From: Pristiophorus japonicus
Lineage: Eukaryota
Direction: 5' to 3'
Length of the DNA stretch: 64,000 nt
Assembly (NCBI RefSeq): GCF_044704955.1
Contig: NC_091992.1
Location: forward strand, 116,002,001-116,066,000
Shown here: positions 44,497 through 45,630 of the stretch, one piece after another
How positions within the stretch are numbered: the first letter of the stretch is position 1
Layout: every line of letters starts with the position of its first letter
Notes under the pieces: model-generated
What the model was told of the DNA's origin: nothing
The model's database searches: none
The model's input: only the letters and a program-made list of their open reading frames with translations
Made by a program: the position numbers and the translations under genes

Positions 44497-45630
44497 TCAC
44501 CTGAGCATGCTCTCCACTTCCCCACCCGACGCGGTCACCTGCGACTCGGTCAGCTCCTGCATCTGGTGCCCTTCCGGACCTCTGCGCCCGGGGAGTTTTG
44601 CGCTCCGCGCGAACTTGGGGCACAGCGTGCTGTGGAAACTCCGCCAGAAACTGTCCGACAGGCAGATGTAGAGGATGGGGTTGGCGCAGCTGTTGAAGTA
44701 GGACAGGGCCACCATGAACTCGAAGAGCTTGCGCATGGCGAAGGTGTCGGGGACGGGCAGGAAGACCACGCAGATGTTGATGGCGTAGAAGGGGAGCCAA
44801 CAAATGGCGAAGACCACCACGATGGCCACCACCATGCTGGTGATCTTCTTCTCGGAGCTCTCGGCCTCGGTGCTGTGGGAGGACACCAAGGCCGTCCTGA
44901 TCCTCAGCAGCAGCAAGATGTAGCAGAGCGAGATGATGGTGAAGGGTATGGCGAATCCCAGCACAAAGGTGTAGACAATGAAGGCGGTGGTCCAGACAAA
45001 CGCGGGCTCCGGCCAGATCAAGGTACATATCTCTGCAGTGCCATCCACATCCGAGTAGATCGCCATGGGGATCACGGGTATGAAGGAGATCATCCACAGG
45101 ATAACACTGACTTTCTTTGCAAGGCCAGGGCTGCGCCATTTGGAGGATCTGATGGGATGCACCACGGCCAGGTACCTGTCCACGCTCATCACCGTGATAC
45201 AGAAGACGCTGGTGAACTGGTTGATGCCGTCCAGGATCATCACCAACCTGCACATCAACCCGCCAAAGGGCCAGCGACGGAGGGCGATCTGCAGGGCCAG
45301 AAAGGGCAGTCCCAGCATGAACAGGCCGTCGGCCATCGCCAGGTTGAAGATATAGATGTTGGCCACCGTCCTCATCTTTGCCTGTTGGACAATGGTGAAG
45401 ATGACCAAAGAATTGCCCGCCAGTCCCACCACGCACACCAAGCAGTAGAGGATGGGGATCAAGATGTCGTAGACACTGGAGGGCACCGCGCCCTCCAAGT
45501 CCTCGGTGTCGTTCGTCGGCCACAAGCCATCGGAGGCGTTGGCTGCAGCCTCCAAATACAAGATCGCTCCAGCGTCCACCTTGACAACGGATGTGTTCAT
45601 GTCGGATGGAGAATAACTCATCCTCGCCAT
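44497..45630 (-). CDS. Divergent somatostatin receptor, SSTR2-like tandem paralogue (377 aa from the first ATG)
   Basis: Uninterrupted 7[53 protein letters not shown], helix-8 Cys, three N-terminal sequons (NTS, NAS, NDT). The track start at 45753 is a GTG; the first ATG is at 45630. Confidence 0.92.
   Translation of the reverse strand: MARMSYSPSDMNTSVVKVDAGAILYLEAAANASDGLWPTNDTEDLEGAVPSSVYDILIPILYCLVCVVGLAGNSLVIFTIVQQAKMRTVANIYIFNLAMADGLFMLGLPFLALQIALRRWPFGGLMCRLVMILDGINQFTSVFCITVMSVDRYLAVVHPIRSSKWRSPGLAKKVSVILWMISFIPVIPMAIYSDVDGTAEICTLIWPEPAFVWTTAFIVYTFVLGFAIPFTIISLCYILLLLRIRTALVSSHSTEAESSEKKITSMVVAIVVVFAICWLPFYAINICVVFLPVPDTFAMRKLFEFMVALSYFNSCANPILYICLSDSFWRSFHSTLCPKFARSAKLPGRRGPEGHQMQELTESQVTASGGEVESMLR

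Follow-up and report, generated by a model that had tools for sequence, protein, structure and literature searches.

With good confidence, we assign an open reading frame (ORF) in the genome of the shark Pristiophorus japonicus, as the shark orthologue, to a seventh somatostatin receptor (SSTR) lineage that is common to cartilaginous and bony fishes and whose gene is located between SSTR2 and what is likely SLC39A11. The gene probably originated by tandem duplication of SSTR2 before the jawed-vertebrate split, and its product is likely Gi/o coupled, with weaker coupling than SSTR2. We refer to the analyzed stretch of 64,000 nucleotides as the window, to the ORF as the window receptor, and to the window receptor plus its orthologues as lineage X. 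The ORF is intact and encodes seven TM segments, its lineage forms a clade of its own, and the gene order around it is shared with other fishes. Pocket and activation motifs are invariant in lineage X, and the ICL3 basic patch and the PDZ ligand have been lost.

The window receptor is a real, intact gene. Its ORF has no internal stop, and there is no N anywhere in the window. As originally predicted, it is a second uninterrupted SSTR ORF about 28 kb upstream of SSTR2 on the same strand, the exact gap being 28,017 bp (Table 1). GC3 reaches 0.85 in the ORF, against a GC content of roughly 0.39 to 0.43 in the adjoining 2-kb windows. Three antisense or off-frame ORFs that overlap the gene (44240-45139, 44219-44671, and 45157-45768) were discarded as high-GC3 shadows; ORFs of the same kind were seen over SSTR2 and other paralogues. 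The protein matches Pfam 7tm_1 (E = 6.8e-65), and the top 22 of 60 listed PDB matches are SSTR constructs, with SSTR2 as the best (E = 1.9e-104) and opioid receptors at about 1e-68. At the sequence level, the protein has these hallmarks of the somatostatin receptor family (class A GPCR): seven TM segments, DRY (residues 151 to 153), CWxP, NPxxY (317 to 321), and the TM3-ECL2 cysteines (disulfide pair C127-C202). W278 and C337 are also present. The pocket consists of Q114, D134, Q138, F217, T221, F281, N285, F303, V307, and Y311. There are three candidate starts (M1, M4, and M11) and three sequons (N12, N31, and N40).

Table 1. Features of the window (positions count from its first nucleotide)
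Feature	Position	Strand	Remarks
Window receptor	44497..45630	(-)	377-aa ORF in one exon; somatostatin receptor of the seventh type, named SSTRX or sstr2-like and probably also SSTR7
AATAAA, candidate poly(A) signal	44423..44428	(-)	68 nt past stop codon of window receptor
SSTR2 orthologue	15355..16479	(-)	374 aa; downstream tandem neighbour; groups with SSTR2 in the tree
CpG-rich stretch upstream of SSTR2	17501..18750	(.)	Likely SSTR2 promoter or non-coding exon
Likely first coding exon of SLC39A11 (ZIP11)	54199..54306	(+)	36 codons; GT donor at end; CpG-rich stretch

The window receptor is 50% identical (168/336) to the product of the neighbouring SSTR2 ORF. On its other side, a short exon stands head-to-head with it, 8.6 kb from the receptor ATG. 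A tblastn search with this exon recovered bacterial ZIP transporters (14 records, E down to 1e-4), and 6 of the 10 listed rows carried a ZIP annotation. The exon matched no Pfam or NCBIfam model, none of the 30 matches listed in a genome-wide ZIP search fell on the window's contig (C16), and an Atlas search was uninformative (nearest Zip cluster, 0.80). Based on the weak ZIP match, sequence motifs, and the gene order in gar, the exon is likely the first coding exon of SLC39A11, a moderately supported assignment. The predicted placement between SSTR2 and SLC39A11 thus stands on the SSTR2 side and is likely on the other.

In gar, the order is cog1(-), sstr2(-), sstr2-like(-), and slc39a11(+), with gaps of 17 kb and 7 kb, and the last three genes have this same order in bonytongue, seabass, and fugu (both from supplement 1 of PMC11224465). 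The window has the same geometry as the gar sstr2-slc39a11 interval, and the gar gene (870 bp) has the length of a 290-aa lineage X member (P0121). The gene thus shows the locus features of SSTRX and sstr2-like: it is intronless, upstream of SSTR2, on the same strand, and head-to-head with the likely SLC39A11. Elsewhere, the coelacanth lineage X protein (P0013) and coelacanth SSTR2 have consecutive accessions, as does the chimaera pair in EukProt. In all seven species pairs compared, the lineage X orthologue and SSTR2 lie on longest contigs of equal size, which is indirect evidence of linkage. A VPS51/Exo84 family search of the genome for COG1 gave three matches, none adjoining the window. A VPS51/Exo84-N match at G000:C16:120773736-120773966 (-) lies 4.7 Mb from the window; should this be COG1, then SSTR2 and COG1, usually neighbours, are separated in the assembly. 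Judged by eye, ORFs at 61118-63956 (+) resemble pol pieces of a Gypsy-type LTR retrotransposon (protease, reverse transcriptase, and integrase), split over several frames within the likely SLC39A11 intron. Intergenic fragments at 3029-3487, 30100-30555, and 36202-37189 resemble, again by eye, a CR1-type LINE and a Penelope-type reverse transcriptase.

Orthologues are widespread in fishes and inconsistently named. Among the best 120 of 986 matches to the window receptor, 17 other lineage X members came from sharks, rays, chimaera, coelacanth (67% identity), sturgeons, paddlefish, and bowfin. With the bowfin protein as the query, all 120 listed of 729 matches belonged to lineage X; they came from gar, sturgeons, and the teleost group (116 rows, zebrafish, salmon, and stickleback among them). 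A 50%-cluster profile search added further members, all from fish, and an Atlas search with P0013 returned general GPCR clusters and nothing more specific. Databases label these proteins SSTR2, SSTR3, or SSTR5, and some are unnamed. The zebrafish member (P0153; XP_002665650.1) is labelled "somatostatin receptor type 2," in contrast to the supplement of PMC11224465, where sstr2-like is "not found" in zebrafish. Tarpon (Megalops cyprinoides) has two lineage X proteins (P0161 and P0262) on different-sized contigs, likely both copies from the teleost genome duplication; PMC11224465 records only the paralogon A copy of sstr2-like in the species examined there. No tetrapod, lungfish, or bichir sequence fell in lineage X among the 275 tree rows, the search for such sequences covering two lists of 120 matches each. 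We infer that the lineage was lost in tetrapods; mammals have five somatostatin receptors (PMC3560075).

To place the lineage, we built a careful tree (IQ-TREE, LG+C20+F+G4) from 48 of 76 rows. The other 28 rows were long branches (including bamboo shark lineage X and amphioxus) or redundant, and they were left out of this tree and of all AU tests. All 12 candidate orthologues formed one clade (100/100), split into cartilaginous and bony fishes, and in a 275-row FastTree analysis, 151 of 151 lineage X candidates fell into one clade with no extras. In both trees, this clade takes in the window receptor and the coelacanth, gar, and teleost genes. The SSTR clade, including the window receptor, was separated from the NPBW receptors (100/100; opioid receptors lie outside the sampling of the tree). 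SSTR2 formed a clade without lineage X (97/85; 967/1000 bootstraps), and we rejected the window receptor as an SSTR2 subtype since it does not nest within the SSTR2 orthologues. By these trees, lineage X is a subtype of its own and none of SSTR1-6.

The rest of the shark repertoire fits a separate subtype. In a genome search with the window receptor, which scored 109 of 1070 candidates and listed 42 matches, 6 reached the level of SSTRs. By tree, they are the lineage X gene, SSTR2, SSTR3 (C19), SSTR5 (C15), SSTR4 (C9), and SSTR1 (C4), the labels combining database names and tree topology. Because the genome has SSTR2, 3, and 5 separately, the window receptor is no stand-in for a missing one of these, to which it is about equally identical (50 to 52%). 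This search revealed no second lineage X copy, and a search with a sevengill shark SSTR6-group protein found no SSTR6. SSTR6 exists in sevengill shark, coelacanth, lungfish, and gar, and the missing match here reflects either gene loss or a gap in the assembly. The shark SSTR4 is labelled SSTR1-like in the databases. A further GPCR match (G000:C15:137975540-137976451; 32% identity to the query) has one internal TGA and may be a pseudogene or contain an intron.

The original prediction had named a translocated SSTR5 as an alternative. Automatic NCBI names of the shark orthologues are "SSTR5-like," and SSTR5 is often the next-best match. The true SSTR5 of this genome is nevertheless on C15, grouping with SSTR5 was rejected for the window receptor plus shark SSTR5 (AU P = 3e-69) and for lineage X plus SSTR5 (AU P = 0.013), and 0 of 1000 bootstraps joined the two, which leaves an SSTR5 copy scarcely credible. 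A grouping of lineage X with SSTR3 was likewise rejected (AU P = 0.010).

AU tests also rejected separate origins of the gene by duplication within coelacanth (P = 2e-68), within cartilaginous fishes (P = 4e-66), and within ray-finned fishes (P = 5e-4, with one teleost SSTR2 row only). Lineage X is therefore at least as old as the jawed vertebrates and, on this phylogenetic evidence, predates the cartilaginous-bony split. An alternative, proposed in part by PMC3560075 (coelacanth) and PMC11224465 (ray-finned fishes), is that sharks, coelacanth, and ray-finned fishes each duplicated SSTR2 independently and recently and that the copies are on their way to becoming pseudogenes. In line with this, lineage X evolves faster than SSTR2 in 7/7 species pairs (54 to 89% versus 82 to 93% core identity to the window proteins). 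Against this, the AU rejections refute the origin part, diagnostic residues are shared (e.g., G at 2.51 in 146/147 lineage X rows versus 0/52 other SSTRs), and all seven TM segments are gap-free and hydrophobic in 116/116 teleost-group rows. The core has also been kept while the ends diverged, as originally predicted: 194/271 core residues are identical to those of coelacanth, compared to 11/39 in the N-terminus, a sign of constraint at the protein level. We consider recent, decaying duplicates very improbable. In the carpet sharks (bamboo, epaulette, and whale; P0022, P0243-P0245, and P0257), lineage X is strongly accelerated and rich in Ala, Gly, and Arg, with the pocket residues kept; in bamboo shark, core identity is 54% for lineage X versus 89% for SSTR2.

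The position of lineage X relative to SSTR2 is harder to fix. Its stem is long (2.2 changes per column), and the root position is uncertain because of this. Lineage X joined SSTR2 with support of 86/78 (864/1000 bootstraps), with 83 bootstraps placing it outside SSTR2/3/5 and 35 placing it with SSTR3/5. The separation of lineage X plus SSTR2/3/5 from SSTR1/4/6 fell just below the starred threshold (93/88; 932/1000), and the window receptor has the SSTR2/3/5 subfamily residues Q2.63, Q3.36, and N6.55. An older origin of the same gene, with the same function, would make it a third SSTR progenitor that a local duplication produced ahead of the vertebrate genome doublings and that later lost its other ohnologues. 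A tree uniting SSTR2, 3, and 5 with lamprey sequences to the exclusion of lineage X was not rejected (p-AU = 0.26), which speaks for this origin, as do the 83 outside placements, the unresolved position in the 76-row quick tree, the near-equal identity to SSTR2, 3, and 5, and an "SSTR 7" with its own pre-2R progenitor in Table 1 of Furlong and Seong 2017 (PMC5207463; after Yun et al. 2015). On the other hand, most bootstraps join lineage X with SSTR2, the shark genome has no second copy, no cyclostome row used in the trees fell inside the lineage X clade, and long-branch pull to the root would give the same picture. We regard the older origin as unlikely and the sister-to-SSTR2 placement as the favoured but unproven topology. 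The prediction of an old tandem duplicate of SSTR2, or of an SSTR2/3/5-clade subtype, thus holds for age, clade, and tandem position; descent from SSTR2 itself is favoured.

Next, we compared residues, numbered via vole SSTR2 (P0050), which agreed at 35/36 positions checked. Most of the 147 lineage X rows used stand for clusters at 90% identity, and a single fish group supplies 116 of the rows; they are not independent lineages. Invariant in all 147 rows were Q2.63, D3.32, Q3.36, F6.51, N6.55, F7.35, and Y7.43, as well as both disulfide cysteines, D-R, W6.48, and N-P-Y; V7.39 was present in 144. DRY, NPxxY, D2.50, N3.35, S7.46, and S8.47 are also kept. SSTR2 structures and mutagenesis show that the conserved pocket residues hold the Trp-Lys turn of somatostatin (PMC9343605). 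Higher in the pocket, four SSTR2 residues differ in the window receptor (Y205 to T, F275 to I, P286 to D, and K291 to R), and ligand preference may therefore differ.

The intracellular face tells a different story. R247 of the ICL3 basic patch is present in 0/147 lineage X rows versus 52/52 other SSTRs, and position 246 is acidic in 131/147; the window receptor has E255/A256 where SSTR2 has K246/R247. The net charge of ICL3 ranges from 0 to +7 in lineage X versus +7 to +11 in other SSTRs (+1 in the window receptor and +9 in the neighbouring SSTR2). A class I PDZ tail occurs in 2/147 lineage X rows versus 49/52 other SSTRs (some rows are partial proteins), and the Phe of the F7.55 region is replaced (Cys in 141/147). 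In SSTR2, K246 touches G-alpha-i1, and SSTR4, where the ICL3 contact is smaller, has a 5-fold lower potency; PMC9054131 yielded nothing on ICL3.

By homology to SSTR2 structures, the Trp-Lys turn of the peptide would dock on D134 (3.32), Q138 (3.36), F281 (6.51), N285 (6.55), and Y311 (7.43); W278, DRY, and NPxxY would relay activation, and Gi would lower cAMP. The replacement of K246/R247 by E255/A256 would weaken the ICL3-Gi contact. PDZ tails act in SSTR trafficking, and their absence may change scaffolding and trafficking. The window receptor thus likely responds to somatostatin through Gi/o, coupling more weakly than SSTR2 and being scaffolded differently. The ICL3 charge of +1 versus +9 could mean more than weak coupling: lineage X might bind somatostatin and signal poorly (as a decoy, a scavenger, or an SSTR2 heteromer partner), use another transducer, or prefer a divergent somatostatin paralogue. 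The altered intracellular residues and lost PDZ tail agree with this, as do the fully conserved pocket floor and the five somatostatin genes of elasmobranchs (10.1101/823187). The retained DRY, W6.48, NPxxY, D2.50, N3.35, S7.46, and S8.47 argue against it, and in a teleost assay attributed to Dong et al. 2018, culter EISSTR7 was reportedly activated by SS14 and lowered forskolin-driven CRE activity, an inhibition of the cAMP pathway. We find this rather improbable. Still more doubtful is a bolder combination, in which a third ancient SSTR lineage, older than the SSTR2/3/5 split, kept its pocket while its intracellular side was remodelled, turning the receptor into an unscaffolded modulator or decoy with low coupling. 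This lineage would survive in cartilaginous fishes, in coelacanth, and in ray-finned fishes (zebrafish, mislabelled SSTR2, among them) and have been lost towards tetrapods. Gi/o-coupled signalling weaker than that of SSTR2 remains our preferred reading.

A third name probably belongs to the same lineage. The serine positions attributed to culter EISSTR7 match only cypriniform lineage X proteins (one at 5/5 and seven at 4/5; 1732 protein-by-start trials), and those attributed to culter SSTR6 match 371-aa teleost SSTR1-labelled proteins at 5/5. By this indirect match, culter SSTR7 (Dong et al. 2018) is probably lineage X. The "SSTR7" of Yun et al. 2015 probably is as well. Culter SSTR6 and SSTR7 from Dong 2018 are listed in PMC9576932. 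A tilapia "sstr2-like" transcript, which may belong to lineage X, has been measured in the gut (PMC12428277). The available text of two catshark papers (PMC4362833 and 10.1101/823187) makes no mention of a lineage X-like gene.

The original prediction of an undescribed two-receptor cluster did not survive: such clusters had been described in coelacanth (PMC3560075) and in gar and teleosts (PMC11224465), and SSTR7 had been tabulated (PMC5207463). In the openly accessible literature, we found neither a cartilaginous-fish member nor a paper uniting SSTRX, sstr2-like, and SSTR7. These two points appear to be new here; either may already be covered by Yun 2015 or Tostivint 2014. The outcome corrects gene-family history and does not establish a novel kind of system. 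Three genes with separate names become a single orthology group, which puts at least seven somatostatin receptors at the base of the jawed vertebrates, versus six ancestral vertebrate receptors in reviews (PMC5818035). Two published readings are corrected, the coelacanth-specific duplicate and the 6-TM ray-finned near-pseudogene. When growth hormone is studied in zebrafish or aquaculture species, mislabelled genes of this kind can mislead, and an invariant pocket with a rewritten ICL3 and tail is a natural experiment on SSTR-Gi coupling.

One of the closest known systems is coelacanth SSTRX, a single-exon SSTR about 22 kb from SSTR2 in the same orientation (Ocampo Daza et al. 2012, PMC3560075), which bears out the extra SSTR2-like coelacanth gene that the prediction had mentioned. 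P0013 (XP_005988145.1) is 67% identical to the window receptor, falls in the same clade, and has an accession adjoining that of SSTR2, from which we infer that it is SSTRX. PMC3560075 describes SSTRX as a coelacanth-specific, fast-evolving duplicate, a reading rejected here by the AU test. The sstr2-like gene of gar and teleosts (Mizrahi et al. 2024, PMC11224465) occupies the same place between sstr2 and slc39a11, on the same strands as in the window, and the tilapia sequence in the supplement carries the ADGLF signature. There, the gene is given a ray-finned-ancestor origin, six TM segments, and a suggested pseudogenization, whereas here it is older than the cartilaginous-bony split and has seven. 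SSTR2 itself (human structures 7wic and 7yae; the neighbour gene) has in common with its tandem partner the pocket floor, Q2.63, F7.35, and the activation motifs. Unlike SSTR2, the window receptor, at 50% identity, lacks the ICL3 K/R246-R247, E2.51, F314, and the S/T-x-hydrophobic tail.
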